A stretch of DNA of 62,548 bases, counting the filler, from Dugesia japonica (taxonomy: Eukaryota), in assembly GCA_001938525.1 (NCBI GenBank). It is 6 parts of 6 records of this genome, joined end to end, with 100 filler letters (N's around TTAATTAATTAA, not from the genome) between each part and the next. Parts side by side here need not be neighbours in the genome. Positions count along the whole stretch, not along the records: positions 12,544 to 20,951 come from MQRL01597222.1; 5 more parts are not named here. One strand, written 5' to 3'. The notes under the pieces are model-generated. The model was not told the origin of the DNA, ran no database searches, and saw only the letters and a program-made list of their open reading frames with translations. The position numbers and the translations under genes are program-made. Below are positions 3,895-62,131 of this stretch, piece after piece; the first letter of the stretch is position 1, and each line of letters starts with the position of its first letter.

Positions 3895-4447
3895 TATTTA
3901 CTATTCTATTTACTGCTTCGATCAAATTAAATTGTTGATATATATGCGTTAAAATTTTTGACCATTGTTTTCTTCAGGAATTTGATGACTTTTTGATAGA
4001 TTTAAACGATAAAATAATTGTTGGTATTTTATTAAAATTTAAATTAAATTGAAAATTTTAAATGCTTTATTATTAAATGGTATTATAAAATTTTTAAATA
4101 TTTCGGAAATTCATAAAAGTTTATTTTAATTATAATAATCATAAACCACATTAATTTTATTCAATTAAAAAATAAAATTTTTTCATTATTAAATATTATA
4201 TTTTTTTTTATTATTTTTTATACAATTTTGAAAAACTTTTAATTTCAATATTATTTTAATTTAATTTCAATTTGATTAAAAGGATCCAATAAAACTTTAA
4301 TAAAATACGTACAATTATGTAAACATTTTCTAATAACATTTAAATCTATCCAAAAGTTATCATATTTCCGAAGAAGAGAATAGTCGAAAATGTAAATATC
4401 TATAAAATAACAATGTAATTTGATCAAAGCCATTATTTCAATGAAAC
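3895..4447. repeat. Diverged copy of the dispersed inverted-arm (HINE-like) repeat
   Basis: GCTTCGATCAAATTAAATTG...CTTCAGGAATTTGATGACTTTTTGATA (about 3915-3998) is an imperfect reverse complement of about 4347-4432, and both match 27550-27632. Confidence 0.6.
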
Positions 4448-5575: not shown

Positions 5576-5695
5576 TTCATTTAATATAAAAGCTTTGAAT
5601 AAAATTTTGATCAAAGCTTTTATATTAAATGAATTCTATAAAACGATCAATGGTTTTGTGCAACAATTATTCTCGCAATAATTGCAATTGTAAAA
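5576..5695 (+). repeat. Minimal copy of HINE-like repeat (23-bp inverted arms plus 3' hairpin)
   Basis: TTCATTTAATATAAAAGCTTTGA-12 nt-TCAAAGCTTTTATATTAAATGAA, followed by the hairpin CAATTATT-CTCGC-AATAATTG (5664-5684). Confidence 0.75.
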
Positions 5696-7199
5696 CAATA
5701 ATATTATTGGTTATAATGCTACATTGTTTTAAGTTTAAATTGTAAAAAACAGGAAAAAGTTTTGGATAATCAATTAATCAATCAAGATTTAGACAAACAA
5801 TCAGATTGTTTCTTATTAATATTTATTATTTTTTTATTGATAATTAACATTTTTATTTTAGCTATTACAGTATTTTAAAATTATTATGAAATGTAGCTTT
5901 TATTTATTGCTTGTAATGGACCCATCAAATTTTCAGTATTTGTAATCTTTGGAAAAAACTATTTAATATCTTTGAAATTTCAAAATAAGAACTTTTTGTC
6001 TAAAGAGAAACTTAAAAAATATCGTCAACAGAAGAATTAATTCAATTTCAATTTAAATAATTTAATATAATTTTTCATTATTTATAATTTCATTATAATT
6101 TCATATTCATAGCAAAACACAATATCAAGGATATTTCGTAAAAAATAAAAAAATGAACTTGTTTATTACATGATTCATCAGCAAGATTCATTTTATATAT
6201 TAACCAATCAAATTCTAATAATGTTATAATGAATATAATGTTGATAATTTTACTGATAAGTTACTGTAATTCTAATTTGTTTTCTAAAAAAAATAAACTC
6301 ATTTTGATAATAATGACTATAATATTACTACTAATATTNNNNNNNNNNNNNNNNNNNNNNNNNNNNNNNNNNNNNNNNNNNNNNNNNNNNNNNNNNNNNN
6401 NNNNNNNNNNNNNNNNNNNNNNNNNNNNNNNNNNNNNNNNNNNNNNNNNNNNNNNNNNNNNNNNNNNNNNNNNNNNNNNNNNNNNNNNNNNNNNNNNNNN
6501 NNNNNNNNNNNNNNNNNNNNNNNNNNNNNNNNNNNNNNNNNNNNNNNNNNNNNNNNNNNNNNNNNNNNNNNNNNNNTACTACTAAACATTAAAAATTGAA
6601 AAGGAATTAGTTAAAAAACAAAATAAGAAGATTCAATAAAATGAAATAAATTATTTTCACAAATACTAAACTAAATTATTATGTAAAAGATATATAAAAT
6701 ATGGCTGAAATGAGTTGATCTTAATTAGAAACAAATTTGGATTGCAAAAACGTATTCATATACAGAGTCCATCATATGCTATTCATTATTGATTTTGCCG
6801 ACGTCTATAGTGACAGAACAGGTTAGACAACTAGAAATAAAATTTTCTCTAACTACCATCAGTCATTGGTGTTTTTAAAATAGTTCAGAATAAGATGGAT
6901 AATTAATTACAAGACATTATGTGATGCATTTATCACTAGAAAAATTAACTCTAAAAATTTTCGATAATATTTTATTCTTCATTTAAAATGCCAATCTTTT
7001 TTAATTAATTATAAAAAGTTTGTAAGAAAACCTTATTAGTCTAATGTTAAATTTCCTGAATTACACAAAAGGTATTTATATCAGTAATTATAATTTAAAT
7101 TAAAATTGAAATTTTCTTATTTTACAGAAATTCTTTTGATTAAATAATTTACTTTATTAATTTAACTTTTAAATTAACTAAACAAATGAATTGATTTAA

Positions 7200-12443: not shown

Positions 12444-12543
12444 NNNNNNNNNNNNNNNNNNNNNNNNNNNNNNNNNNNNNNNNNNNNTTAATTAATTAAN
12501 NNNNNNNNNNNNNNNNNNNNNNNNNNNNNNNNNNNNNNNNNNN
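12444..12543. other. Artificial scaffold linker N44-TTAATTAATTAA-N44
   Basis: Palindromic 12-mer with stops in all six frames in a 100-nt block. Identical blocks at 20952-21051, 30448-30547, 41314-41413 and 52899-52998. Confidence 0.97.
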
Positions 12544-12943: not shown

Positions 12944-13642
12944 TGTTGGGCTAGAACATATAATTTTGGGTGCAAAAACGCCAACAAAGCATCCCCAAAT
13001 AATACGAAAATTAACAGAGAACAAGCGGAAAATTAAGTAAACAATTGGTGCTGGACCAGATATTTCGCCTTATCGTATCATTATTATTATGTAATTATTA
13101 TTATTATAATTATTATACGAGAATTATTGAAACGGGAAAAAATGAAAATTGGACGTAGAGGACCCAAATTTGGAGATACAACGATGAAATTTGAATGTAC
13201 GATAGGAAATAATAAGACAAATAATAAAAATAATATAAAATACTATAATAAAATATTAAAGAGGCCTCTACGACCCATTATTGTTATTATAATTAACGCT
13301 AATTAGCGTTTAATATTATTGAAAATTTGATTCATTCTGGTCCAGTCACGTTTATTTGTGGTTTTTCCAAGCGATGATTCAGTTGGAAAACTAAACAGTG
13401 AGACAAGGACATTCTCTTGACGACACGAATTTGGTTTTCCAAATTCGTTGTCAATCAATCGTGCATGCAGGCAAGCAAAGTTGTGGTGCGATCATTCCCG
13501 AGATTCGAGAAAATCTAACTCCAGGAACCAATGAACGGACGAGATTTTGAAATGCAAATCGACGATTGGGCGAGTAATGAGAGCTCTCCAGTCGTGGTGT
13601 AGATGAAATGAATAAAACCAGATTACTTGGAAAAAATGAACA

Positions 13643-13816
13643 GAAGAATTTAAAAATTTTTACTTGAAAACATTTTAGGAAAATTATCGAAAAATTTTAC
13701 GGCATCGAAATCATTTTGACAGGAGCAGAAGAATTTAAAGATTTCTTTTTACTTAAAAGCATTTTGGGAAAATCATTTGAAAATTTTTAAGCCATCGAAA
13801 CCATTTTTGCAGAAGC
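13643..13816 (+). repeat. Tandem duplication of a unit of about 87 bp inside element copy 1
   Basis: AGAAGAATTTAAA...CATCGAAA.CATTTT..CAG.AGC occurs twice. Confidence 0.8.
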
Positions 13817-14399
13817 CTCCAGAACATTTTATCGGCAACTACCACAGAGTAAATATTTGTTCATTTATTTATTTTATTATTTTTACATTAAAATCAATTT
13901 TTTTGTTAAACAAAATAAAATCATCATGTCCGAGTGCCGCCACCAGAATCCTTTTGATTTAAAAATAAGATGACGATTTAAGGACGAGACAAATTTCGTA
14001 ATGTGGCTTAAAAAGTATGAATTGAGAAATCACGGGAATTTAGAGGAATTCGCCGGGTGGCGTTCACGCATGGAGGGGTGCAGGTGAAGCCGAGAATTGT
14101 AGGGCGAAATTAGGTTTTGTCAGATTTCAACGAGTACAAATATCACAGTAAATTTTTCTGATTCCCCGATGGGATTATTGTTTGATTTATTATATTTTGA
14201 GTAGGAAAATCATTTTTGTGTCTTGTCAAAAGCCGTATTAATATTTAATAAATAATTTTAAAAAAAAATTATTCATTATTCTTATTGATTTATTTATTAT
14301 TATTGATCTTATGTNAATATTTTCTTTTAATCAACCGATTTGTTTTAATTATTAATATTTTTTTTTGTACAAAATAAATCGAAGTGCAAGTGTTTTCTA

Positions 14400-15047
14400 A
14401 TGAGTAGGGAATGACAAGCAGTGTTGGACGATAGCGGGAACGAGAGAAGATACCAGTTACCAGCGGATATCTTCTCTAGTTCGCATTATGAGACGTGGTA
14501 AATGATGATAGGCCGTAGGCCGAAGAAATCGTGTAAATCATGGGAGGTTCAAAAATCTAATTCTATTGTATTTTATTCATTATTGTATGTAGAGTGCATT
14601 AATAAATATGATTATAATTACTAGATGGCAAAAGGCATAAGAAATTTGAAAAGACCACGCTATATATGGTTGTACATCGACTCTAACGGTTGCTACTATA
14701 TTGAATGGTCGGAGGTCCAGACAATGATCCGTGATGAGAAGATAGCCCGGAAAGAAGAGGCAGATGATTTGAGGGCGGATCTCGAGGTAGCCAACTTGCG
14801 GGTTACCATACTCGAGGCGAATAATAAGCTACTCACGTCGCAATGGGATCGACTGATGACGACCCTCGAAGAGATTGATGTGGAAGACGTCATTGAAGAG
14901 ACCCAATTGCCTGGAGCTGCTGAAGAGAGTGATGCAACTGAGAAAAATAGCCTGGAGTCGCAAGCGGAAGAAGAAGTCTCGATTATTCAGGATTTGATGG
15001 GCCTGAGCGATTCCATCCCGAAATCTCCTGTGAATAACACTAACTAA
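14400..15047 (+). pseudogene. Element gene A, copy 1: exon 14400-14546 (two stops) plus exon 14625-15047; coiled-coil protein with acidic tail
   Basis: GAG|GTTC donor and CTAG|ATG acceptor are in phase 0. NERRYQLPADIFSSS, IGRRPKKS and GCYYIEWS have counterparts in copy 2. Confidence 0.6.
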
Positions 15048-15568
15048 AATGTGTAGCGTTGTCAAATGTGAGTTGTTTTGCTGTTTTTTTTGTTTACATT
15101 TTTAGTATGGAAAATTAAAGTGATATATGTATGTCACGATGATTGCAGAGGCAATCTTTGAATGATTTTAATATTTAATTGTTAGATAAATAGAACTTTT
15201 TCGTTAATTAAATAAACAAAAATAAGAATGAAGATGAGAAATGCANGCGCAAATTAGAGCATATTGAAACATAACGAGTTCACTGTGGTTATGATTATTG
15301 ACGAGGAGACGGGGTAACCATCGGACAATTTTTTGATCGAATCAAGAAAACATCATTGAGTCGTGATCGTGAAATAAATTTTATTTGAATAATGCTGTGG
15401 TATACAATCGACTTTTATTTTCAGTATTAGCATTAATAAGAAGCGGTTTCATAGTATAAGATTTAACGCTGTAAATAATCGAAATAATTTAATAATTTCT
15501 TGATTTATAATTCAACTGTTACTTAGTTTAATAATTAATGCTAAAATAAACTATTTTGATCATTTCAG

Positions 15569-15874
15569 TGAATCCGATAAAAGATAATAAGACTCCATCG
15601 AAAGAAATGGAAAGAGGAGCGTTGGACGCTAAGAAATGAAGTGCTGCAACTGAAAAGCCAGGCTACCAAGCATAGTAGCAAATATCAACAATTAAAAGAG
15701 AAAGAGTTGGCCTTGCAGCAAGCCAACCAATTGATGGCCGAAATTATCAAAATTTATGCAGACAGAGAGGCCGTGGTGTTCAACAATTTGAGGGCACTGT
15801 GGTTGTTGTACCGAAACCTAGTGAATGAGCCGTGTGAAGGGAATGCCGATGTGGATGTAGATGCATGTGAATAG
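15569..15874 (+). CDS. Element gene B, copy 1: short coiled-coil protein
   Basis: TTTCAG|TGAAT acceptor; KKWKEERWTLRNEVLQLK...SSKYQQLKEKELALQQANQLMAEIIKIY...LRALWL; AATAAA just after the stop; clear homologue at 26700-27012. The 5' frame is disrupted. Confidence 0.65.
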
Positions 15875-17019
15875 ATGCAAATAAATAGTTCGCAACGTGA
15901 TTGATTCTTTTTGTGTTTATTCGCGGTTATGTATGACCAGTTAAATTTTATCAAACTGGATTTATGTAAAATCAATACTGAACAATTAAGAGTGATTGAG
16001 ATGGGGTTCATGAAAAGGAAACGTAAGACATGATACCGCAAAGTCGCGCTGAACCCGTGGAAAGAGGGACATTTCACTAAGGTGACTCAAATGCTTGTGG
16101 TTTTTAGGTATGCCCCTAGACGAAATTGATCGCACTTATGTCTTTAGGAAAATAATCGAGGTCGAGGCATGCAGACATTAAACTCAAATTATTTAAAATC
16201 CTAAAAACCCAACACACATACACATTTTTTTAATAATATACATTTCAATAATCCTGCAAAATAATTTTATAAAATTATACACTTTCTCATATTTTTCAAA
16301 ATTATAAAATACTTTAAAAATTTGCAAAAAACCATGGCAAATGTTTAATAAAAAATAAATAATGCCATTTAAAATAAAACTTTATTGTTATATATTTCGA
16401 CGGATTAACCGTCAGACAAAAATGAAATAAATGAGTTTATTCAGNNNNNNNNNNNNNNNNNNNNNNNNNNNNNNNNNNNNNNNNNNNNNNNNNNNNNNNN
16501 NNNNNNNNNNNNNNNNNNNNNNNNNNNNNNNNNNNNNNNNNNNNNNNNNNNNNNNNNNNNNNNNNNNNNNNNNNNNNNNNNNNNNNNNNNNNNNNNTATT
16601 TTATTACTGTTACTTATAAAATCGAAGATGTTTTGTCAAAATATTTAAATTTTTTTAATTTTAGATTATATTAAAAATTTTAATTAAATTAAATCAAAGT
16701 CTTGAATTTTACGACGAACGTTTCTAATACGGCTGAAACTCGAAAAAGTAAATTTTACTCCATTATTCTTTTTTTTAAATTGTATTTCGTTTAGTAATAC
16801 TCCCATTAGAAAGAAATTATTTTCAGAGCTTACAATAAAATTCACTTCTGGGTTAGAAATAGAGATGATATTGTCTTTATTTTATTTTAATTCACGAGTG
16901 ATTGGAAATAAAAATAAAAAACTGTTTTGTAAATTAACAATAAATATATGATTTGTCTAAATAAATTCGATTACTCAACGACAACAGTTTTAATGAAAAC
17001 ATAAAGAAAACTAAATTAC

Positions 17020-17485
17020 TTTTTACGGGGAATCCATCATCCATTGTACTCCACTTTTTTGAAGTATTCTTCAGTAAAACCTTTTTGTTGCCACTTTCAA
17101 CTTGTTTTGTTTGAGTATTCGTATTATTTATTTGATTCAAATTCTTCAAAGAATCTGGATTTAGATTTACTAATAATAATGGTTGACTTTGAGATAATTG
17201 TTCATGTAATTTTCTTGAGGCAGGTAAATTGAGGATATGTAATGTTCCACCACTACCGTTTTCCGGTTGTGTTTTTTCAGAATCAGCACTGTCTTGAGAA
17301 TTTGCATTTCTATTAAATTTTACAGCAGCAGAATTAGAAAGACGACTGAGTTTAATTTCAATTTTTTTTGATTCTACGATATTATTGTTATTATTATTAT
17401 TATTATTACTTGTAACAGTATTGGCATTATTTGTCAACTCTACAGTTTTTTGTTCTTTTATTTCTTTAATCGTAGAACTATCATT
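17020..17485 (-). CDS. Cav3 (T-type calcium channel alpha-1) C-terminal exon, Asn-rich low complexity
   Basis: TATAG acceptor at 17486, in frame with the preceding exon across a 63-nt intron. NDSSTIKEIKEQKTVELTNNANTVTSNNNN... The donor position (17020 vs 17027) is uncertain. Confidence 0.75.
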
Positions 17486-17548
17486 CTATAAATAATATTA
17501 AGTGAATAATAAATATTTCTCTCTCTAATTTCTAATTAGAAAACTAAC

Positions 17549-17662
17549 TTCTTCAGAATCAGAGGAGATTTTCTCTCTTTGTTTCTCTTTATTTTCTTCA
17601 TCGATTTCACGCTGAACTTCTTTTTCAATTTCATCATCATCACACATCATTTTATGAGATTC
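17549..17662 (-). CDS. Cav3 exon after IV-S6
   Basis: CAG|ESHKMMCDDDEIEKEVQREIDEENKEKQREKISSDSEE|GTTAGT; continues MKHLE-ES as in Cav3 channels. Confidence 0.88.
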
Positions 17663-21059: not shown

Positions 21060-23030
21060 AAGCACAGACTATAATGTTTTAATAGAATGCCATTTAACAT
21101 TGCAGCGGTATCAGGGACATTTCAGAAGATGATGACAAAAGTGGTAAGCAGAATCAATGGAACCATGGTTTATATTGATGACATTCTGATATTTACGAAT
21201 AATAAAGATAAGCACTATGAAGTAGTATTGACGGAAATAATGAAGGCTGGTCTAAAGATAATTTCAGAAAATTCTCAGTTTCTTCAAAGCGAAATCAAAT
21301 TTCTTGGACACATAATTAGCAGGGATGGTGTTAGAACTTATCCGTATAAAATAGAAGCAATAAGAACATTTGGTAAACCTAACTGTGTGAAGAAGTTACA
21401 AAGCTTCTTAAGAAATTGTAGTTATTACAAGAAGATTATGAAAAACTACGCAAGAAAATCAAGGATTTCAGAACGGTTGTGTAGTGGACCATGCAACAAG
21501 AAATTAGAATGGACAGATGAAATAAACGAGACTCTTGAGGGTCTAAGTAAACCTCTAATGACTGCACCAATATTGTGTTTTCCAGACATAAACAAATAAT
21601 TTATATTATATACAGATACCAATTTGATACAATTGAAGCAGTATTGTCACACAGAGATAAAAAAAAGGAGAAAGAGTTGTTGCCTATGAATCACACTCAA
21701 TGGCGAGTCATGAAAATGTATATTGCATAACACGAAAGGAATTATTGGCTGTTTATTATTTTCGCATGTTCTTCAAACATTTCTTGTACGGTAGAAGATT
21801 TACTCTTAGAACAGATCATAAAGCACTAACCGCCATAATGACGACAAAGAAACCAATTACGTACAATTCCAGACATGGACTACTTATCTGAGTAGTTTAG
21901 ACATGATTTTTGAATATAGAAAATGAATTCAACATTGCAAGGCAGATATGTTATCTAAATCAAGATGTGAGGTATGTGTACAATGTCAAATATCACATGA
22001 AGATGCTAAGAAAGGGAAGATTAAAACAAGAATACTGAACATAATTGAAAAGGAAAAAGAAAATCATTTAAACATTTCTGAGGAAACAGATGTAATCAAG
22101 AAAATAAATATTTCAGATGACAAAATACATGAGACAATCGAAAAAATACATAAATTATTATGTCATGCAGGAGTTGAAAAGGTGTACAAATATATGAGAA
22201 ACAAATATATTGCAAAGAACTTGTAGAGCTAAATACATAAGATAGTTCGTAGTTGTGAAATTTGTCAGAAGACCAAAGTAGTGGCAACAGCAACTAAAGA
22301 GAAGACAAAGAGTTTAGAACGTACCAATTTTTTTGAAGTTATATTCACATATATATGTGGGCCANNNNNNNNNNNNNNNNNNNNNNNNNNNNNNNNNNNN
22401 NNNNNNNNNNNNNNNNNNNNNNNNNNNNNNNNNNNNNNNNNNNNNNNNNNNNNNNNNNNNNNNNNNNNNNNNNNNNNNNNNNNNNNNNNNNNNNNNNNNN
22501 NNNNNNNNNNNNNNNNNAGATTGCGGAAAAGCTTTTGAATCCAGAATTATGAGAGAGTTTGACTAAAGATAGATATTAAACTTTGGTTTTCGAGTCCCTA
22601 TCATCATAATGCAAGCGAAGAAATTGAGAGGCAGTTCAGGAAAATTCGAGATTTGATTAATGCCACACTCCAGGAAAGTACGTCAACAAATTAAGCATAT
22701 CTTTTTTGTGAAATAAAATTTACACTAAAAGCAACAAAGCAGAAGACGATTGAGAAGAGCTTAATTGATATTGTATTTGGAAATAGAATTAGCAGAGAAA
22801 AGTGGTATAAGTCAGACTTTGCCGAAAACACTTCGAACGTGATTACTTACAGGGAATTCAAAGTGGGCGGTTTTGTACTCATAAAAATATAAACAAGAAA
22901 TAAAACTCAAGACAAATTTGAAGGACCTTATCGAATAATTGAGAAAATTCATGAAAGGCGGTAAAAGAAGAAAATGGACCGCAATTGGAAAGAAATTTGG
23001 AAAAACTTAGAAGTTTTTAAGGAATGGATA
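21060..23030 (+). mobile_element. Decayed Ty3/gypsy pol (RT-RNase H-integrase)
   Basis: MPFNIAAVSGTFQ, VYIDDILI, FLGHII, TAPILCFPD, KELLAV, FTLRTDHKAL, HKLLCHAG...CEICQ, DCGKAFES, SPYHHN, ERQFR and FEGPY. Confidence 0.93.
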
Positions 23031-37497: not shown

Positions 37498-38000
37498 GAT
37501 GAAGAGATACTTACCAAAAGACAATTTGCGGTCGGTTATGAGGTCTTAGTCAAAGTTGAAACAAAAACCAATATCGTTTTGAGTGACCCTATAAAATCAA
37601 GAGGAAGATTCACGACAGACATTACATCCTGGAAGATACAAAAGGAAAAAGTCTCGAAATCAACATAGACAAGATCAAAAAATTTCTTAAAAGGTGTATC
37701 CTCTAGGAAATAAGATAGTTTTTAAAAGCAGATTTGAATTTTTTCTGATTTGAGTGAAATTTATTAAAATTAGTTTTGTTTTCTATGGAATTGAGTTTTG
37801 TTATTAATTATCCGATGACTACTTCAAACTCATCTAATAATTACTATTTGGTTTGGATTGATTTGTTATTAATCGAAATTGATAGTTGGATTTCTATTTA
37901 TTACTTAAATGAACACGGTAACTGGATATATGTTTATCAAATAAAACTATACTTGTTTCATTAAAAGCAAACCAATACACCTTGAACGTGGTATATACAG
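37498..38000 (+). mobile_element. Plus-strand integrase C-terminus and degraded 3' LTR of the same gypsy family
   Basis: EEILTKRQFAVGYEVLVKVETK is an inverted paralogue of about 36045-36215; LTR-like AAAAGCAGATTTGAATTTTT follows. The right end is approximate. Confidence 0.75.
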
Positions 38001-41185: not shown

Positions 41186-44026
41186 TTGATTCGTCCTGCC
41201 ACGACAGTGACAATAAAATTATATATAATATATTAAACATAAATAAATAAAATTTTAAAAGTGAGCGGAAATTTTGTCGTAAATTTTAAATGAAAATTAA
41301 GTAAATAAATAAANNNNNNNNNNNNNNNNNNNNNNNNNNNNNNNNNNNNNNNNNNNNTTAATTAATTAANNNNNNNNNNNNNNNNNNNNNNNNNNNNNNN
41401 NNNNNNNNNNNNNATAAAAGTATGAATAATTGAAACAATAAGAGGTAAACAAAATCAACGTTTGTTATCATAAAAACAATCTACATCATTGTTGTGAGTT
41501 AAAATGTAATAGTGAGTAAATATAATGTTAATAAAACAGAAAATTATTATTAAATAGATTCTAATAGCATGATTATAATAAATGTTATATTAAAAAGCAT
41601 CGGTGCACAACATTTTTTGTTTACTTCATCAGTTAACCTCAAAGTCGCGGACCATGCATGTAAAAACTAAGGGCCACAGGTTGTGCATCACTGATATTAC
41701 ACGTATTATATTATACTACATAACTTAGAAAATTGAATATACCACTGTTAAAGTGTCATTTACAGCTAGCATTTTGGAGGAGAACGTTGTGAATCCGTGT
41801 AATGATGGTTGCATAGAATTATATTTCAATAGAAATACATTTTATATTTTTCATGGACTTGGGTTTCGAGCCACGAGTTGCCAATCACTGTTATAAAGTA
41901 TTAAAATGTGTTAATATATAGTCTATTTACAGAGTATATCATTATATATACTAAACATATTAAGGTTAAATAAGGTNCTCAATATCAATATAATATAGTA
42001 ATTTAGAATTGTTCAAGCTTACGCAACTGCTGATTTTTTTTTGCATAAACCTAAAAGCATCTCAACAGAACCTTTGAAATCGTATTAAATATTCAAGAAA
42101 TATAATTACAAATGCCATTAACGGTGAAAGAAAATATTAATTGTACATGTAAATTTTTTTACCATTTCATCTTTGATTTTTTGTAGANTTGAAATTGAAA
42201 TTAAATAATAAAATTTTTAAATAAGATTTTTTAAAAAAATTTTTATTTAGAAATTCTTCAAATTAAAAGGAATCGCAAATTATTTACTTTGTTTAAAGTT
42301 TTTTAAAAAAAGCAAATTTATTATCTTTATCTTTGTTTTCTAATTAATGTTTACGGAATCAGAAACTCTTAAAATTCTACGACTAGTGTTTTAGACTCAT
42401 TGGACAAACGATATTTTTTTTAAATTAACAAAACGACGAAGCAAAGAACAACTAAAAATTTGATTTGATTAGTACTGTATATTATTAATTGAGTTTAAAT
42501 ATTTGATACAAATTTTATAAAATAAACATTTAAAATTATTAATAAAGTTATAACTTGGTTTTGATTTTAATAAGAAAATTAGACATTTTATAGAATGCTT
42601 TTGTATAGAATGTTTTGTATTGGTTGTCCTCTAATCAGTTCTATTGGCAGTGTAGATGAATTTGGACACAAAAGCGTCGACATTCATCGAACATTGTAAA
42701 TTAGAAAGAAATAAAGCATTATTGGTTAGAAATCTACATACTATTTAATTAAATAAAGATTAAAGAATATTTAAAAGAATTATTTCTTTTCCGGGGATTC
42801 CGTATCAATCATTCTAGTTTGGCTTGTGGGATTGTGTCGTTCATGTAAATTTATAAAGAAAAGAAATGCAAGAATGACTCTGTAGAAAAAGCTCGATGGT
42901 GTTCTGAAGAACATTTACGCTAAAATACCTGAGTTGAAACATTAATAGTTTTCATGATAATAATCTTTTATACTGAACTTTACAATCAACAGATATACAA
43001 TAGTATACTAAAATTATTAAAAGGATAATTGAAGATAAAACCTTTTAAATTAAGAAAGTAAATTGTTCCATTTAGTTTTATTAATTTATTAATAATAAGT
43101 TACATTTTCAATTACTTAATAAGTAAATATTAATCGATTATAAAGTCTATCAAATCAATGAATCATTAAATCAATAAAATTAATTCTTAATAAGGTTAAC
43201 AATTGGATATTTTAAAATTAAATTTTACATATTTTTTTCAAATATTCTCTTATATTTTAATTTAAAAAATTTTAAAATTAACAAAAAAATGAAAATTTTT
43301 TTTCCCAATTCAAATGAAATATTTACATAAAAAACAACATTTCAATTACAATAATTATTTATTTTTTATTTATAGTACTGGTTCATTACCATAAATTTAT
43401 TTTCAATTATTTTATATCGATATTTAAGTTGAGAATCGATATTGAACACTTGAAATTAAAACAAAAAAAACTAAAACCTATGAAATTCTATTATCATTTT
43501 GTTTGCATAAATTTATTTACTTAAATCAATTGGTTTAATGAGTCTTCTAATTTTGAGAAAAAACGTTATTTGAGCTTTATTTGCTTTTAAATATCTTGTG
43601 TTTGAACAGAGGAGTATAATTGTCAATTTCATCAAGTACTTTGAATATTTGTTTCTTTATTATTTTAGTATTTTAGTAAACAAATTATGTTACAAACGTT
43701 TTTAAAAGCTCAATTCATTTTACATAAATTCTAAACTTAATTAACTATAGAAAATCAATATCTAAAATCTAATTTTTGTTAGTTGATAAAATAAATATTC
43801 TTTTGGTTTGATTGATCGATTTGTTTATTAATTCATCGATTACTTAATTTTATAAAATAAGTAACTAAGGTATTTATTTAGCATTATATTTTCGATGAAA
43901 TCTTTATCTATTAACCGAATTTTCAATTGAAATTTCATTAATTGAAATAAACCGATCTTTTCAACTAGCTCTTTTAGCAATTTTCTATCTAATAATACTA
44001 AATACTAAACAAGTTTTAATAGATGT

Positions 44027-44200
44027 TTTACAATTGCAATTATTCCGAGAATAATTGTTGTACATAACCATTGATCGTTTTATAGAATTCATTTAATATA
44101 AAAGCTTCGATCAAACTTTTTGTTTTTTTATTGATTTTTGATAACAATGCGATATTTCGACCTTGTCTTCGTCAGGAATTGACTTTTAATAAACACCTTT
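44027..44200 (-). repeat. HINE-like repeat copy, minus strand
   Basis: TTTACAATTGCAATTATTCCGAGAATAATTG...GAATTCATTTAATATAAAAGCTTCGATCAAA is the reverse complement of about 5605-5695. Confidence 0.8.
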
Positions 44201-46134: not shown

Positions 46135-46700
46135 CTCAGAGTTATTCATAGATGATGCATATCTCGTAAATTTAATTTAATTTAAATAATTTGGTATATA
46201 TTATATTATATATTATTTAAATTATTTTTTGAAATATTGTTTAAAATATTTTATAGTAAAAAAGTATATTAAAGATTTTTGAAATAGTAGAAATTTTTTG
46301 TCGAAAGTTTTTTGAAAATGTTATTTAATTTAAATAATTGCTATATACTGTATATTGCATTATATTACCAATTATGTTTTTGATATATTTCATTGTAAGA
46401 AGTGTGTAAATGAATTTTTAAATATTGTATGTTTTTTTAGATGTTTTTGGAAGTGTATAATTTTATAAAATTATTTTTAAGGATTATTTAAATGTATATT
46501 ATTAAAAAATATCGTATGTGTATTTGCTTTTAAAAATCAATATTTTTAAATATAAAATTAATATTCTCAGATATATTAATATGTTATTTGTTTAAATATG
46601 ATGGATTATTCTTGCATCCTTTCAACTTTAATAAAACAATTATGATATTGATTAAAAATTATGGATAATTGTGAGATTCTCAATTTAACTAATAATTTAT
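46135..46700 (-). repeat. Uninterrupted family X LTR-like copy (empty site for element copy 1)
   Basis: The reverse complement aligns with 12810-12943 and then 16219-16290, with a single CACA at the junction. Confidence 0.8.
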
Positions 46701-49254: not shown

Positions 49255-50777
49255 AAGTTTTTTCTGTTCTATTAAATTTTTTTCAAATATTCTGTTAAAT
49301 ATTTTTATATTCTATTAATTTCTAAAATATTTAGGTTCATAATTTAGTCATTAATTCTTTCTATATTGCTCCATAAAATCAACGTATCTAATAATATGCT
49401 AAGTGAATTAATATTTTCATGTCTTCAGGCACTGACTGTTGGTGACTTTGAGTTGAAAGATTTTAACAAAAAATTACTCAAAAAATCTTATTATATTTAT
49501 TCTTGTTTGAACTATTGGTATAACATGAATATTTTCAACAAAAAAAAATCCATCTTAAAATTATTTTAAGCGAAAAATTTAATCATTTTTGATTTTTTGT
49601 CATTTTTCATATTTTATAATAAAATTTAGTTTTATGTTTTTTATATTTTACTTTCGTTTTTTTACATTAAAATGTTTAAAATTGTTTTACATAAAAAAAG
49701 ATAATTGGAAATTTTTTTTATAAGAATTATGAGTGCATTATGAGATCAGAGTAAACCAGCTGGAAATAGATTGAATTAGTTAACGTAAACTGAATTTTAA
49801 GCATTTTCTGGTTACAAGTTTAAACAAAAAACAAATAAAGTTGTTGTTAAGAAATTTTGTATTCTTTTTAAAACAAGCAATAAATTAAACTCAATATCAT
49901 ACTTTTACAGATGCCCATCGTAATATTAATAAATAATAATACATCATTATAATACATGAAAATCTTTTCAGTAGTTAAGACATTGAAATCAAAGTTAATT
50001 TTGACAAGTCGATTTGACAATTAGAGTTTTTATGATTTTTTATTGAACATTAATCTCAGATAATCGTTCTTTCATTTTGGTTTATTTCCAAATACAAAAC
50101 TGCAAAATTTGGTGCATATTTTCTTTTGAGATTATAAGCTTTATCTAAATGATCTCTTCTTTTGGAACACTGTAAAAACTTAGCATCGAATAAAAGAATA
50201 AGTAGATAGAGATGCACTACCCCCTGGAGTATAGCTTTTGGATTAAAACCAATAAGATAACGAATTAAAAAGTAAGATAGGAATGTCTCATAACCTTGTA
50301 TCGTCAAATGTTTACTTCCTTACAAAAATTAAGATTAAAATTACACAAAATGTATACATTACTTAAAAGGCTATTTACGTAAAGTGCTTTATTTTCTTGC
50401 AATTTTAAAAACAAAGAACAGATACATTTTTCTCTGAATTTTTTACTTTTATTTTAGTTATTTCATTGTTAAACTTGCACGTGTATTGTATTTTCTTTGT
50501 TTAACTTGCATGTGAATTACACGCACACAATGTCATTTAAATAAAGGACCAATCAGATTTAAACACGCACACGAATAAGTATATCAATATGTATATAAGC
50601 TAAAACTTGCAATAATTTTTCATTATTTGAAAATGAAAAAAATAACTTTAACAAATGATAATACTTCAATAGTTAATGTTAAATGTAGAAAACCTGTGGA
50701 TTACCATCATCATAAGATGAACCTCTTTAAAAAGTCTATAATATATACGTTTCAAGTAATATTATTTACTATTATTT

Positions 50778-51001
50778 ATTCATTAAAATAATAGCTGCGA
50801 TCAAAATCTGTTTTTTGGTTTTTATAATAATTCTATATTTTGACTTTGTCTTCGTCAGTAAATGACTTTTTGGATATACTTCCAATACAAAAAAAACAAA
50901 AATCAAAAAACAAATTTTGATCAAAGCTTATATTTTAATGAATTCTGTAAAACGATCAAAAACGTCCAACAATTATTCTCGCAATAATTGTAATTGTAAA
51001 A
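50778..51001 (+). repeat. HINE-like repeat copy
   Basis: TTCATTAAAATAATAGCTGCGATCAAAAT ... ATTTTGATCAAAGCTTATATTTTAATGAA, then CAATTATTCTCGCAATAATTGTAATTGTAAA. Confidence 0.78.
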
Positions 51002-54304: not shown

Positions 54305-55043
54305 TTAATTGTCTGTTGTTATTTCATTACTTTTTTCAATTTTATTATCGGCTTTTTCCAATTCTTTTTTTATCATTTCTTCAAAAGTCAATCCTTGATA
54401 CTTTTTGGATTTTCGTGGGGGCCCAAGTACGTAAAGTAAAACAGAAATCCATTTATAGATGAAAAATAATTGAATAACAACAATCAGCATACAGAGCATA
54501 AAATATGTTACATCTTCAACATGAGGAAGACTTTCTGGACCTTCAATTTCTCTTTGTGGCATTTCTTCATCATCTCCTAAATCATCAGGCAAATAATAAT
54601 CGATTGTTTCTCCTAATTCATCTTCGGTAATTAATGACAGGCTACCGCTTTTTGTTTGCAAACAAAAATGATAGATATCATCCATTTGTAGACCTGGACA
54701 TTCATATTGTAAACGTCGTCTAGGACCAATACATCGTTGTTTAATGACATTTGTTTCACATTCTCTACTTTGTGATCTATATGGCATTTGAAAACAGACC
54801 TCTGCTTTACTTGGAATATAACAATCACTCCATTCAGACCATTCTGACCACAATGGATCTGGTGGCATTATTTCACAGTTTTGTCCTTCAAATCCAGTTT
54901 TACATTTACACAAATATGAACCAACCAAATTCTGGCAAATAGCACCATTCTTACAAGGTTTAGTAGTTTCACATTCATTGATATCGACACACTTAGCGTT
55001 GTCTATACTATCGATTTTGTAAATGTTTTTAGGACATCGACAC
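54305..55043 (-). CDS. Last exon of an EGF/cbEGF-TSP1 single-pass membrane protein
   Basis: TTTTCAG|(R)CRCPKN...[50 protein letters not shown]...RSQSREC, hydrophobic [28 protein letters not shown] and a basic tail. Confidence 0.88.
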
Positions 55044-56146
55044 CTGAAAAATAATTGACTAAATGTTTCGATAACAATTTTTTATACGATAAAAAATTGT
55101 TTTTCCTTATTCAAACTCTAGAGTCACACTCATTCTAAATATTCTCTGATTTAGAATTATAAGAGTAATTCATAAATGATGAATATCTTGAGAATTTTTT
55201 AATTTAATGATTTGGAATATATTATATAGTATTATATTAAAATTAATTCTTGAAATACTTTTAAATATTATTTAGAATATTTTATATTAAAAACAAAGTA
55301 TATAAGAGTATATATTTTTGTGAAAATTTCAATTGGTTTAAATAATTTTTATATTGTATTGTATAAAAAATATAATAAAACTATCTTTTAAATTATATTA
55401 ATATTTTTTGAAAAATTTATATTACCGATTTTTTAAAAATAATAAAAATTAATTATAAAATTATTTTGAAAGATTAGTAAAAAAATATTGGGTATTCGAT
55501 ATTTTTAAATATAAAATTTTAAATTCTCTCAAATGAATAGTAGGTAGATGGTGGCGCCACGGCACAATTTTTTTATCACAATTTGGGTGGACGTGTATGT
55601 TGGGAATGTGTGACGTAATAATTTTTTNAAATCTTTATTTTGTGTATAAAATGCTGTACTTTGCTTAAAATGATGAAATTATTGAAAATAATGGTATTTT
55701 GAGTATTTGATGTATTTTTGAGTTGGCAGAGTTGTTTTTAATATTTTTTGAAGGAGGAAAAAGGGAGTCTGGATATTTTTGTAGGGAAATTTTTTGGCAG
55801 GAAACTTAAAAATTTTTTTTTGGTGAGAAATTTAAAAAAAATATTTTTTGGCCGGAAATTTAAAAATTTATTTTTGGGATTGAAATTTTTTTAAAATTTA
55901 ATTAAATTAAATCTAATTAAAAATTTTTTAGAAGACTTAATATTTATGTATGAGATGGGGCAGTCTTGATATTTTGCATGAGATGGGTGAATTCTCTAAA
56001 TTTTGCATGAGATGGGAACAGTCTCTACATTTCTAAAATTTCCTAGATTTATGTTACATGTCTATTGCATTTATTTAAATTCCCAGGCATGCGATTTTCA
56101 GTGTATTAGTGTTTTTAACTTTCAATTATAAACAATGTTCTAAATT

Positions 56147-57624
56147 ATGAGTAAATTAAAGAAAAACAAGATGGAAAGATTAAGAAATGATGCAGTCTAT
56201 CAAATTGGTGGACCCAGCGGTAGTGGGAAAACTTTGTTTGTATGTCAATTATTGAAATCAAAGTTATTCAAGTCAAAATTTAAAAACATATACCGGCATA
56301 TAAGTACAGATGAGGAGCATGGATTGACTAAATCTGAATTTTGTAATATTAAAATAAAAATTATAAATGGTTTTGATTCTAATTGGAACAAATGATTAAG
56401 ACCAGGTGATGTTATTGTTGTTGGTGATCTGTATCAAGAGGCAAACGAAGAAAAAGATTTCAATAATTTATTCACAAAGATATCAAGACATTGTAATGTT
56501 ACTGTGATATTTATTACTCAAAATCTATTTCATCAATGAGGTAGTCATGGAACCCTCAATTCGTTGGGTATTTAACTCAACAAAAGATTTTATGGTTCGT
56601 ATTTGATACTAGTATACAGATACTTGGTTTGTAGTTTTATGGGTAATGATTTTATCTCTATGTATATGTCAATACTATACTATATAATCAATATTCGATG
56701 ATATAAATAGTTATAGTGTAAATTACCTTATATAAATAAATAAAAAAACCCTTGTAAAAGTACCCTTTTATTTTTTATGTATAAACAAATATTCTTATAT
56801 ATTAACACCTTATTAGCTCAATTTAATTTGACAGAGGACTGCTGCCCGAAGAGGTTAGAGTCTCTGCAAATGAGAAAAGTCTGAAAAAATAATAGTTTCA
56901 ATCAGTATTTATACTAAATTTGATACACATGTGTGCCTATAAGCACCATTCAAATCTACTTAATATTTCAAAAAAATATTTCACACAAAATAAAAATAAA
57001 ATTCACCTGCTTGCAAATTTTCACAAAAATAAAAATCAAATCCACCTGTTTGCAAATTTTTTTACAAAAATAAAAATAAAATAATAATTATGTGCAAAGT
57101 AAATAAAAATATAAATGTTTGGATCAGGATTTTCAAAATGTCTAAATTAAAATAAATGTTTAAATCAGAATTATGATTGAATTGCAACATATAGTTATAT
57201 TAACACAATGCTTTCTAATTGGTTGATGATTGATTGGGTCTGTTCTTTATAATTGATTGATGCTTGATTAGGTCTGTTCTTCGACTATTGGCTTGAATCT
57301 GATGATTGAACTGTGTTGTTGTTATATTTGCATGTTATGTTATGTTCTGTGTGTTTGTGATTCTGAACAAATGTAAACGTCCAATATTTGGTTCTATTCA
57401 AATATCCTATAGATCAGATTGTTGTTGATTTTCTAGAAAGACAAGCATATCCAAATAACAAACACTTTCTTATTGAATGCTTTCAAGATGCAACAGAAAA
57501 ACCACATAGATATCTATTTCTTGACTTTCCACAAATATGTCTAGATGAATATAGAGTGAGAACAGATATATTCAATCCAAATGGTATCACAATATATATA
57601 AACAAAATAGGTACGTTTTCATAA
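56147..57624 (+). pseudogene. Polinton A32-like packaging ATPase, split by an 809-bp insertion
   Basis: Walker A GGPSGSGKT, Walker B-like VIVVGDL, FTKISRHCNVTVIFITQNLF | YLVLFKYPIDQ...DATEKPHRYLFLD...RVRTDIF. Confidence 0.9.
56561..57369 (-). mobile_element. Solo-LTR-like insertion in the Polinton ATPase
   Basis: On the minus strand it runs TGTTCAG...ACCCAACGA, is flanked by AAT on both sides and has several CCAAT boxes near its start. Removing it restores TLN-VNVQYLVLFK. Confidence 0.65.
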
Positions 57625-57902
57625 TATTACAAAATATGACAAAATTAAAGAAATTTGTAGTTGATCAAGTAACTGATTGTGTTGTTAAACGCCAGAAAAT
57701 ATCTTTTGAGAAGAAAAAGTATGGAAAAAAGAAGAAACAATTGTATAAGAAACATCATATAAATAAAAAGCAACAAGTAAATAAAAGGAAACAAATGAAT
57801 ATATTTAAAAATCTTGCAAAAAGAAGTGGAAATAAGCTGAGAATGTGAACAGAAAAACGAATATAAGCAAATAAATGGTTTGTATTATTTTAATAAATAA
57901 AG

Positions 57903-58050
57903 ATGAAATTACAAAGAAATATTCCCTTTTTTACAGCTTTGATTAAATCATCAAACCTTTAAGAATTGGAATTTTACAATCATTTCCACCATATGTTATA
58001 GACTATTTACTTGAAAGTATTATAAATATTGTTCGTGGTAATCTAGATTT
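57903..58050 (+). pseudogene. Small conserved Polinton ORF remnant (PX-like)
   Basis: ALIKSS, RIGILQSFPPYVIDYLLESIINIVRGNL resembles the NhhxGNh motif of small Polinton proteins; frameshifted. Confidence 0.45.
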
Positions 58051-58139
58051 ATATTAATAAATATATTAATAAACATTTGACGGATTGCAATCATTACCTA
58101 ATTTTGACTTAAAATTTGCATCGAGTTGCTGTAATGGGA

Positions 58140-58790
58140 AAACTAAAGACAATATGAACGAATCCAAAAATTCCAGCAGGTTTTCGAGGCGGAGAAAAAT
58201 TAATGAAAGCAGCTCAAAAAACGAAAAGAAAGACGAAAAATTGGTTATCGGGTCAACTAGCGTACAGTCTAAACAAGCCGATGTTGAAAACATTTCCAAC
58301 AAGAGCATATAAAACATATGGTATTGAGGATTTATGGCAAATTCGGAAATTAATAAAGGGCACAAGTATATTTTGACAAGTATCGATGTATTCAGTAGAT
58401 TTTCAAGAGATATTCCTGTTAAATGAAAATTTGCTAATGATATGGAACCAGCAATCAAGTCAATGTTTAAAAATGGACATCCAGATAATTTACAAACGAA
58501 TTTGGGTAAGGAATTTTACAATTTCAAGGAGAAACAACTTATAAATCATCTATCCCTAAACCATTATAGCGCATTCTCTCAGTATAAAGCTGCACATGTA
58601 GAGAGATTTAATCGTACATTGAGAGATGCATTGAAAAAGCACTTTTTACATGTTGGTAATAAGACTTGGATAAATGTTTTACCGAAACTTATTCATAGTT
58701 ATAATCATTCTGGTCATAAGGGATTAAATGTAGCAAGACCGGTTGATGTAAGTAAAAGCAATCAATTAAAGTTATGGTTATTGTTGTTGA
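58140..58790 (+). pseudogene. Polinton retroviral-type (rve) integrase
   Basis: PAGFRG, WLSGQLAYSLNKP, DLWQ, KYILTSIDVFSRF, LQTNLGKEFYN, AHVERFNRTLR and YNHSGH. Confidence 0.92.
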
Positions 58791-58799
58791 AGAAACCAT

Positions 58800-60920
58800 C
58801 AATTTGGAACCGAAAGAAGAAACATCAAATATTGTACAAGAAGAAGAAGCAATTAATAATGAATCTGATGATTGGAGCAATTTTGAAATACTTGATGAAG
58901 TTGATGAAGAAGATATTGTGTTTCCTAAGCTCATCAATATGGAAGAGCAAAACAATCAAGTTGGTGGATTGATAATGAATACTGAAGAAGATTTTATGTC
59001 ATAAAAATTTATGGATGTAGAAGAAACGGAAAATAATAATCAAGTTAGTGGATCAGTAAATATAACTGTGGATGATGAAGTTATTATATAATCGTATTTG
59101 TATCGTTGTCATAGGATACTTAAAATAAATGTATCAAAATGGAATTCTCGTGAAATAATGATACCAGAAGCTATAGTAAACAAATTATTGTAAATAAATG
59201 AAGCAAGTTAAAATACAATTTGGGTGCATGTTGAGTTCAAAAGGATAACAACAACTGCTGATGGAGAAGAATTTGAGTTTAAAACCTGTATGATATCAAA
59301 TAGAGCCGTTGCATTAACTAATAACTTTGTTGAAGATGATATAAACCAATTGAATGAGAAAATAACATTAAGAAGCGAACTAGGCTTCAGTTGGATGTTG
59401 AATCAAATACTGGAAATTAATTTTAAGATCACAAAGTTTGCAGATATTTAACGACTTCCAGAAAAAGGTTATATTCTAACACTGAAAGATTTAAAAAGGA
59501 AAAGGGCGATTGTAAACATTAAGAATGATAATAATTACTGTTTTATTTACAGTATTCTTGCTATCACCAAACAAGATCAAGTTGGAGAAAATAATAAAAA
59601 CCGCGTAATATTATAAAAAAAAATACATGTCAGAGCTTGAATTTGATGAAGAGGATATGCCGATGAAACTGATTGATATACCAAAGTTCAAGAAGAATAA
59701 TCCAGTACTATCCATCAATGTATTATCGTGGAACCAAGAATCAGTGGATTAGGAAGAAGATGACGTAGTAATGAAACATCCAAATTTGGATATAATACAT
59801 CGTTCTAAAGTTGTAGATGGAGAGAAAATATATCTATTATTACTATTAAATAACAACAGATTTCATTACACAGCAGTAATAAATCTAAATCGCCTAATGA
59901 ACAGGGATAATAAAAATAAAAGTGTTCGTATTTCGTCAACATGGTGTCGTAACTGTCTCAATGGGTTCAAAAATAGAGTAGCTTATGAAAAGCATGAACC
60001 AATTTGTGAAAAAATCCAGACAGATACCACAATGTATACGATGCCATCGGAGAAGAATTTAATTTTTAAGTATTATTCAAAAACTTTAACACCATTTTTT
60101 GTTATATATGCAGACTTGAGTCGTTTTTACCTCCAGACGAGAAGCATTTCCAGAAACATTTACCTGTTTCGGCTGGTCTGTTGTTGGTAAATAATTTTAC
60201 CAACGAAACAAAATACAGACAGTTTATTGGAGGTGACTGTGTGTATAATTTCTTAAAGGCTGTGGAGAAAATAAGCGAAAACATTGTGTTTCCTTATTAT
60301 GAAACANAAGGAAAAAAGAAAATTATAATAACAACGGATCAAGATAAAGAATTCAAAGCTACAAAATTTGTTATTTATGCAAGAAGGAAATAAGGGATCC
60401 CGTTCGTGTCCATGACCATTTCACACGGAAAAATAGNNNNNNNNNNNNNNNNCAATGCAATTTAAGTAGACAATTGCATATTCAACTACCAGTGGTCTTT
60501 CATAATTTACGAGGATATGATCTTTATCACATCCTCAAGTATGGTATTAACAAGTTCAAGAATCCCAACAACATCAAAAAAATTTCTATGTTTAATTTTA
60601 CGGCAAAATAAAACAACAATGAAATTCATCGACAGCTATCAGTTCATAAATTCCTCATTGGACTCTGTTGTTAAATCCTTAAAAGCGACACCTTTGATTA
60701 AAAAGGAGTTTAAGAATCAGATTATTACCAAGTCAAAAGGGATATTTCCGTAAAGTTTAGCAACGAGCTTACAGGTTCAGGAAAAAACAAAGCAAATGCC
60801 ACCAAAATGGGAGGATGTTAGTAGAGAAGAATATGATAAAGCATTATCGATGTGGGAAATATTTGGTTGTACAAATTTGTTGGACTATATGATGTTATAT
60901 TTAAAGTTTGCTGATTTAGA
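58800..60920 (+). pseudogene. Polinton protein-primed family B DNA polymerase (N-terminal and exonuclease part), truncated
   Basis: AIVNIKNDNNYCFIYSILA, HYTAVINLNRLM, CRNCLNGF, PFFVIYADL, HDHFT, PVVFHNLRGYD, KFIDSYQF, KGIFP and LLDYMMLYLK. Confidence 0.92.
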
Positions 60921-61312
60921 TCCCAGTTTAAATACATTTAGGAATATTGCTCGTAATTTATATTTATCCAACATGTTTTTTAAAAATAATATTTTACAAT
61001 AAAATAGTAATAAAAATAAAATATTACTTGTATAATGTAGAATTGAATATACGCTTCAAAATGACATATATATTAATATATTAAAACAAATTGTTCTTTT
61101 CTTCGTACGAAAATTAAAGTTATCCTTTAAACAATCTTAGTATTTTATATGATTTTAAAATATATTATTATATAAGTGATAGATCTTAATTGATGATTTT
61201 GAATTTTAATAGCTTAATACTTTTATCTATTGAATTAATGTTTTTCGATTCTATATTTTGAATTTCCCCTAATTATTAATATGGATTTAAATTAAATTAT
61301 TTTAATAATAAC

Positions 61313-61927
61313 CTAAATCCTTGTTTGATATTATTTGCGTCTCTAAGACACGTAAATTCTCCACAAGTTGAAATAGGTGGTTCTTCAGCACATGGATTTC
61401 TTTCTAATTCACAATATTGACCTTTAAATGCTGGTGGACATTTGCATTTTATTTTATTAAGCAAAACTCCATTTTCATCAGATTCTCTTTCACATTCTCC
61501 CCCGTTTTTACACGAATTAATGTTTTTACAAAATATAGCATCATAGTCTTCAACACAAGAATCAAGAAAGTAGTCGTATTTGAAATACATTCGGCAATTA
61601 CATTGACCATCCAATGCTGTCATGTATTGTAATCCAATTAATCTTAATAAAAATTTCATATTCACCTTCATTTTCAAAAATTCAATTGAAAGTTTTTTAT
61701 TTCTTGGTAATCTGTTATACCATTGAAGAAATTCTTCTCGAACATTTTCCACATTTTTGGTTTTACCAGTATGTAATTGACCGATTATATAATCACTGAT
61801 TTTAGAGTCCATAATATTTTGACAAGTACCGGTACTATTGCCCATATTTTTACATCGTGTCAACTTGACTTTACAGGAATCCGGGCAATTAAATTCCGAA
61901 TCTATATTTCGAAGACATAAAGCCAAT
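61313..61927 (-). CDS. Cys-rich/EGF exon of the EGF-TSP1 membrane protein
   Basis: TTAG acceptor; CPDSC...C, CKNGGECE...CKCPPAFKGQYCE and NPC...CGEFTC...GF(AG)|GTTATT; the phase matches the exon at 55043. Confidence 0.88.
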
Positions 61928-62131
61928 CTAAATATTATTACTTTTAACTTTCATGAAATGAATTGTCTAAATTTTCCAAAATCAAAAGTTCAAAATTGGA
62001 AATTTTCTAAAAAAATAGAAAATCATATTTTTTTGTTTAATTTCAAATAATTACCCTTCCGAAACTGAAAATAATAAATTAAAGTATATTTTGATTATTA
62101 TTCTCGGTATAATCTATGACTCTTATTTAAG

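Follow-up and report, generated by a model that had tools for sequence, protein, structure and literature searches.

Two diverged copies of a 3-kb element lie within a 62.5-kb stretch of Dugesia japonica DNA, hereafter the window, and each copy holds toward its 3′ end the remains of a small gene that we refer to as gene B (Table 1). The window is eukaryotic and AT-rich (GC 26.4%, with 1895 N left out), with short introns, EGF-domain exons, and numerous decayed mobile elements. Runs of filler N stand around TTAATTAATTAA (e.g., 12444-12543); contiguity across the fillers is uncertain, and none falls within either element. All comparisons of the element and of gene B are between these two copies (n = 2), both inside the window.

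Both elements begin with TGTTGGGCTAGAAC and finish with an identical 22-nt sequence ending in CCCAACA, giving TGTNR termini and a terminal inverted repeat of 7 bp in each copy. Copy 1 is directly bounded by the tetramer CACA on both sides (chance of a 4-mer match ~0.009), and an empty paralogous site near 46480-46559 (-), at which CACA occurs once and the element is absent, confirms that this is a target-site duplication. The empty site belongs to an uninterrupted paralogue (46413-46684, -) of the repeat hit by copy 1, which is ~82-87% identical to the copy 1 flanks. The flanks of copy 2 form an imperfect duplication, and a 4-6-bp duplication was thus found in one of the two copies. Between the termini, the landmarks are collinear in both copies: a 5′ AT-rich block, tandem repeats that are unrelated to each other, a hairpin at ~1.5 kb, gene A, gene B, AATAAA, and a 3′ block. 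The distance from gene B to the 3′ end of the element is 540 nt in copy 1 and 537 nt in copy 2, and its stop lies 340 and 343 nt from that end, respectively.

Table 1. Coordinates of the element copies and of the features within them, counted along the window
Feature	Positions	Strand	Details
Element copy 1, 3271 bp, likely solo LTR	12944..16214	+	TGTTGGG...CCCAACA; target-site duplication CACA
Element copy 2, 3078 bp	24278..27355	+	first 14 nt and last 22 nt as in copy 1; flanks TTAT/TATT
AT-rich 5′ block with (ATT)n, 76% identical	13080..13344	+	copy 2: 24364-24629
Two ~90-bp tandem units, copy 1	13638..13816	+	U3-like position
Tandem arrays of 24 bp and 47 bp, copy 2	25150-25404	+	unrelated to copy 1 units; U3-like position
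Non-coding hairpin, conserved, equal register	14431..14489	+	~1.5 kb from 5′ end; copy 2: 25803-25861
Gene A, copy 1, open 140-codon ATG frame	14625..15047	+	predicted helical; no known family
Gene A positional counterpart, copy 2	25988..26380	+	three internal TAG stops in 130 codons
Putative splice acceptor TTTCAG/TGAAT, copy 1	15557..15576	+	copy 2: TTTTAG/TGAAT at 26700
Gene B, copy 1, 97-codon open frame without upstream ATG	15581..15874	+	frame scan, structure prediction
Gene B, copy 1, predicted layout			basic start; coiled coil, residues 10-66; FNNLRALWL, residues 67-75; acidic disordered tail
Gene B core, copy 1, 44 codons	15674..15805	+	codon-level comparison
Gene B, copy 2	26700..27012	+	acceptor; basic segment in other frame; one in-frame stop; core 26818-26949; stop 27010-27012
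Gene B core, copy 2	26818-26949	+	gapless versus copy 1, offset 11144
3′ block, 85% identical	16023..16123	+	U5-like position; copy 2: 27168-27269

The 3′ block shows no exceptional structure (z +0.50 and -0.90). At 16096-16111, it contains GGTTTTTAGG, which repeats part of the element's 3′ end (16198-16214) in inverted orientation ~90 nt upstream of that end, and the same arrangement is present in copy 2. The hairpin scored z -3.95 in copy 1 and -1.21 in copy 2; both sides have changed in 2 of its 28 pairs, and its covariation was not above that of shuffled alignments (126/500). The search of Rfam returned no match to the hairpin and a single sub-threshold match in all, outside the elements. 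Gene A of copy 1 has an open length reached in 6 of 20,000 shuffles. Its similarity to the positional counterpart in copy 2 was not significant, as 173 of 2000 shuffles scored as high. An alternative genetic code that would read through the TAG stops of the copy 2 counterpart was ruled out, because the standard code leaves long host-like frames open. A motif resemblance of gene A to KilA-N/APSES found no support in Pfam.

The first-pass annotation had proposed that gene B is conserved at the protein level between the two copies, aligning without gaps through many synonymous or conservative changes. We confirmed this conservation. The two core peptides align gaplessly with 30 of 44 residues identical (87/132 identical nucleotides), and the differences fall 16/8/21 at codon positions 1/2/3. 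Different codons are used for 17 of the 30 identical residues, and by the Nei-Gojobori method pS is 0.78 and pN 0.23, a ratio of 0.29 (bootstrap 0.15-0.51; 0/5000 replicates at or above 1). The gene B frame is the only one of six that is stop-free in both copies; the remaining five contain stops in both, with pN/pS of 0.53-1.73. When the 45 differences were placed blind to codon position, 30 identities were reached in 0 of 100,000 simulations (mean 17.9, maximum 27). By maximum likelihood, dN/dS is 0.09-0.12 over the core and 0.02 over 64 codons; since dS is saturated (not computable by NG86 or YN00), the exact value is unreliable and only "far below 1" is safe. The protein sequence persisted through a near-complete turnover of silent sites, and the small gene was therefore likely part of the repeat itself.

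We note that the gene B block was chosen for its similarity and that the tests compare two copies. The annotation had also stated that the flanking DNA barely aligns, which is true of the immediate flanks (33-39% identity in register versus 66% in the gene B block) but not of the element as a whole, since two non-coding blocks exceed gene B in DNA conservation (76% over ~270 nt and 85% over 102 nt versus 72% over 117 nt). The similarity of gene B continues weakly downstream to the stops (15872 and 27010). It also extends weakly upstream as far as a basic KW/RW segment (a score equaled in 23 of 2000 shuffles). Residues 1-10 carry a net charge of +5, with a weak match in copy 2.

The AG/TGAAT acceptor that had been pointed out is indeed present in both copies (15569 and 26700), but its phase relative to the core differs (1 in copy 1, 2 in copy 2). 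Sites that resemble an acceptor are frequent, numbering 8 and 14 in the regions scanned. The copy 1 frame that follows AG/TG is out of phase with both the basic segment and the core, and the gene B frame has stops at 15569 and 15578 and a single ATG at 15734. The acceptor of copy 2 shares its phase with the basic segment, but the core follows only after a 7-nt offset and a stop. Under a model with a shared acceptor, neither copy of gene B is thus intact, each having a frame break between acceptor and core. The downstream AATAAA was likewise found in both copies (15880 and 27041), although this motif is frequent, at 3.96 per kb in the window. We consider the evidence from the acceptor and AATAAA weak. 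The 97 open codons of copy 1 were matched in 17 of 20,000 shuffles.

Third-position GC content (GC3) is 0.51-0.54 in gene B and 0.45-0.54 in gene A. Three host-like frames have lower values (0.19-0.21), as do five gypsy remnants (0.26-0.37). The difference from the host-like frames suggests that gene B is not a fresh host capture. As both present copies are broken, selection was likely exerted on active element lineages before insertion and not on the two loci as they now stand. The saturated silent sites, the retained amino acids, the long predicted helix, the predicted parallel homodimer, and the present breakage of both copies support the earlier proposal that a small coiled-coil protein was under purifying selection while the element was active. 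Gene B is dead at both loci, and we therefore make no claim about current host biology.

To obtain a structural view of the product, we used AlphaFold2 with a two-sequence alignment, which predicted helices at residues 2-27 and 33-81 followed by a disordered acidic tail (mean pLDDT 76.9, pTM 0.46). In the best heptad phase, 9 of 12 a/d positions are hydrophobic and 9 of 12 are identical between copies, with a conserved Asn49 at an a position. Modeled as two chains, gene B gives a parallel coiled coil that is in register and spans residues 10-66, and the core residues L38, L45, N49, M52, I56, and Y59 are identical in both element copies. Multimer prediction had been suggested as a check of the coiled-coil proposal; the homodimer model scored 0.36, compared to 0.02 for the best of three controls, with runs agreeing in 100% of contacts and partner pLDDT of at least 83. 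This score is just above the mark of 0.32 that we used for dimers. Among microbial proteins, that mark was reached by 21 of 30 solved as pairs and by 0 of 23 single chains, and among eukaryotic proteins by 17 of 29 pairs (animals 7/16) and 0 of 30 single chains. Since only 1 of 7 eukaryotic pairs without an older solved relative reached it, the model may let a generic coiled coil through by memorization. Gene B is accordingly predicted, at the level of these models, to form a parallel homodimeric coiled coil.

Residues 67-75, FNNLRALWL in copy 1 and FHTLRTLWL in copy 2, are conserved and lie just outside the modeled interface. We take the FxxLxxLWL spacing to fit the pattern of a leucine-rich nuclear export signal. 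This fit was noticed post hoc, and a shared match arose in 1653 of 20,000 column shuffles (8%), or in 5175 with a looser pattern.

Homologue searches with gene B returned no known relative in the libraries searched, although distant relatives may exist. Among 5.8 billion proteins, queries with copy 1 and copy 2 found no homologue at near length, and a search of the same proteins for longer ones with the two-sequence alignment retained 0 of 633 candidates, which is weak evidence. Exact look-up matched 0 of 5 sequences, and Pfam gave nothing above cut-off for genes A and B. The best ESM Atlas scores were 0.91 for gene B, with low recognition, and 0.86 for gene A, both to generic coiled coils. 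Three PDB sequences matched gene B at E 0.24-0.95, and the weak matches to CENP-U, SCOC, ninein-like, and TACC were all below significance. The fold search of BFVD gave 0 of 442 matches at E ≤0.001; an SIV Rev entry in that library (rank 14, E 2.0) was set aside as chance level. For bZIP and env profiles, there was no Pfam, PDB, or BFVD match to gene B, and its sequence contains no long hydrophobic or transmembrane stretch. Of 95 pattern matches in viral contigs, two passed (36% over 48 aa); the one inspected was a phage tail region, and both were dismissed as coiled-coil noise. Prokaryote genomes gave 0 of 358. The 14-nt terminus occurs at 118 metagenomic loci, none of which (0/118) matched genes A and B or the conserved blocks.

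We next consider the unit that contains gene B, which the first-pass annotation had not named. Its arrangement may be of the U3-R-U5 type, with tandem repeats in the 5′ half, a mid-unit hairpin, AATAAA 314-334 nt from the 3′ end, and a conserved 3′ block. TGTNR ends are described as common to gypsy LTRs and Ginger transposons (PMC2836005), and LTRs of such size are reported from giant gypsy elements (PMC6431247). The simplest reading is that the copies are solo LTRs of two long-diverged gypsy-type lineages, and we hold this to be probable. Neither a primer-binding site (PBS) nor a clear polypurine tract (PPT) adjoins either copy. No pol or gag-pol lies inside either element, and Pfam found no reverse transcriptase, integrase, or transposase family on genes A and B. 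Nowhere within the 62.5-kb window does the element sequence occur as paired LTRs around gag-pol. That copies 1 and 2 are themselves the paired LTRs of one insertion was ruled out by the saturated silent sites and by the fact that copy 1 has a target-site duplication of its own.

Decayed Ty3/gypsy gag-pol remnants are present elsewhere in the window (21075-22546, 28100-30400, 34200-35500, and 36000-37545 (-)). They match reverse transcriptase and RNase H, their protease and zinc-knuckle matches are weak, and those at 28600-30070 and 34200-35500 are ~85% alike. Degraded integrase-like and DNA-polymerase-like frames, which we take to be Polinton, occupy 57500-60800, where Pfam gave a weak rve_3 match only (E 0.039). 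Comparison of the elements with the gypsy and Polinton remnants by tblastx gave no match, and the gypsy remnants are not evidently the parent family, as their GC3 differs from that of gene B.

The other surroundings are varied. Host-like exons with EGF domains (EGF_CA, E 1e-8) and a hydrophobic segment lie at 54305-55081 (-) and 61297-61950 (-), with transposable element remnants between them; the WSxWS motif in these exons is presumably thrombospondin-like. Further host-like exons, with a poly-Asn tract and short introns, are found at 16934-17640 (-), 0.7 kb from element copy 1. A multi-copy, MITE-like family of palindromic AT-rich repeats occurs at 3915-4438, 5600-5697, 27440-27710, 31296-31413, 44014-44180, and 50775-50997. 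Part of copy 1 is contained in 20 of the 24 sequencing runs listed (best share 0.33); no RNA run is listed as containing it, and these runs are uninformative on expression and copy number.

We hypothesize, with a probability of roughly 55%, that gene B encoded an LTR-borne accessory protein that dimerized via its coiled coil and served as an adaptor in the element's own cycle. Two subfamilies would have diverged until silent sites saturated, with gene B and the cis-blocks staying under selection throughout. Each subfamily would have inserted a full element, of which LTR-LTR recombination would have left a solo LTR, and both loci would then have decayed. The gene B mRNA would have been spliced, and its end would have been set by the poly(A) site of the LTR itself, just downstream of gene B. 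Its product, which would have been small and non-enzymatic, may most likely have been needed to handle the intron-bearing element RNA or the element's particle. An RNA regulator would be useful to such an element because splice signals inside the LTR must stay in the genomic RNA that regenerates the LTR.

In a more elaborate version, the LTR would be a self-contained module, with a very long R that begins at the hairpin and takes in genes A and B, both spliced, before ending at the poly(A) site, and gene B would be a minimal Rev-like adaptor that exports intron-retaining RNA in trans via the hairpin. The basic tip, the dimeric coiled coil, and a free C-terminal export signal would be the working parts of this protein. 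If this were so, each LTR, solo ones included, could make gene B, which would then represent an export factor of independent origin, encoded in the LTR of an invertebrate gypsy element. We rate the module as very unlikely because of the weakness of the hairpin in copy 2 and its covariation at the level of shuffles, and we treat a Rev- or CERV-like export role of gene B as a lead only.

It is also conceivable, if unlikely, that the protein was directed at the host: with the container still a solo LTR, gene B would act as a dimeric zipper without a proper DNA-binding domain, sequestering a coiled-coil protein of the host (for example, a factor involved in transcription or silencing). The zipper-like a/d pattern with its conserved Asn at an a position would suit such a role, and giant planarian gypsy elements are described as carrying host-regulating domains (PMC6431247; Burro1 IAP as cited in PMC13465017). 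However, gene B has no significant similarity to a host family, the matches to CENP-U, SCOC, ninein-like, and TACC being sub-threshold, and no partner was identified.

A second alternative concerns the container and not the protein. The 3-kb unit might be a complete non-autonomous, Ginger-like DNA element, mobilized by an integrase-type transposase and equipped with its own accessory genes. Ginger1 and Ginger2 share with our copies the TGTNR termini, the 4-bp duplication, and a length of ~3 kb (PMC2836005), and neither copy is joined to gag-pol. The same source describes inverted repeats of 40-270 bp and an integrase-like transposase in these elements (PMC2836005), whereas the inverted repeat here is 7 bp and a transposase is absent. 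In addition, the duplicated site is CACA, not CCGG or CCGT, and strong selection on a passenger gene would be harder to explain. We regard a DNA element as quite unlikely.

Gene B could instead be one piece of a larger ORF, whether this came from the host by capture or gene B is the 3′ end of an env-position ORF that reaches into the LTR, such that selection predates the present setting or the fragment is still functional for the host. The putative splice acceptor, the missing start codon, and the 97 codons that copy 1 keeps open (17/20,000 shuffles) would fit this improbable scenario. Against it, no longer homologue was found (weak evidence), GC3 is unlike that of the host, no transmembrane stretch is visible, and the frame breaks at both loci argue against a current function there. 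Least of all do we favor a block kept as a DNA or RNA cis-element with an incidental protein match. Non-coding blocks nearby are equally or better conserved, which would fit it, but the strong codon asymmetry in one frame only, which the hairpin block does not share (pS 0.09-0.29, pN 0.30), and the 0 of 100,000 simulations largely refute it.

Returning to gene B as an LTR-borne accessory protein, the pattern is familiar from retroviruses, in which genes lie in or overlap U3 (MMTV sag, HIV nef, foamy bel2) and in which HERV-K Rec acts with an LTR response element. As in the U3 genes of vertebrate retroviruses, an accessory coding exon of gene B would lie in the LTR and be reached by splicing, but vertebrate retroviral LTRs are much shorter, and no significant sequence or fold similarity of gene B to these genes was found.

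Among invertebrate elements, the gypsy-like LTR retrotransposons of bdelloid rotifers are reported to carry accessory ORF3s, typically expressed from spliced messages, and to have left many solo LTRs (PMC5408684). Some of these extra ORFs encode coiled-coil proteins and have no homologue, like gene B; unlike it, they are described as occupying the env position behind pol, and those with coiled coils also possess transmembrane segments (PMC5408684). Gene B lies within the terminal unit, has fewer than 100 codons in this exon, and has no transmembrane stretch. CERV, an accessory protein of the Caenorhabditis elegans Gypsy/Ty3 element Cer1, is translated from a spliced mRNA, and unspliced RNA needs it for export. 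It resembles gene B in that it lacks homologues elsewhere and has predicted coiled-coil contacts and a candidate export signal (PMC10309623). Other features reported for CERV (PMC10309623) do not appear in gene B.

Burro of planarians and Ogre of plants also have multi-kb LTRs (1.9-6.5 kb in Ogre; at least ~5 kb for both LTRs of Burro together, from quoted sizes) and accessory ORFs of unknown function (PMC6431247). The extra ORFs and domains described in them are internal (PMC6431247), and our element is compatible with Burro in size. Plant Retand elements are reported to have extra ORFs too (PMC11963269). Extra ORFs of LTR elements are thus well known from rotifer elements, Retand, Burro, and Ogre, and all those described in these sources are internal. 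The accessible text of PMC11410931 and PMC8532177 gave no LTR detail. Our full-text literature search returned no description of an ORF under selection within the LTR of an invertebrate gypsy element; the family may already be annotated in Grohme et al. 2018, in Lee et al. 2026 (as cited in PMC13465017), in their supplements, or in Repbase.

Purifying selection between transposon subfamilies is ordinary in itself. What is unusual is an orphan accessory gene within the probable LTR of an invertebrate element. Annotation pipelines assume that LTRs do not code for protein, and solo LTRs are usually much more numerous than full elements. If the family keeps a selected gene inside its LTR, numerous dispersed copies would encode, or would once have encoded, an orphan protein absent from annotations, with potential trans effects on the family or on the host. 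If true, an invertebrate retrotransposon would join the retroviruses in having accessory genes borne by its LTR, and a small, testable candidate regulator would be at hand.
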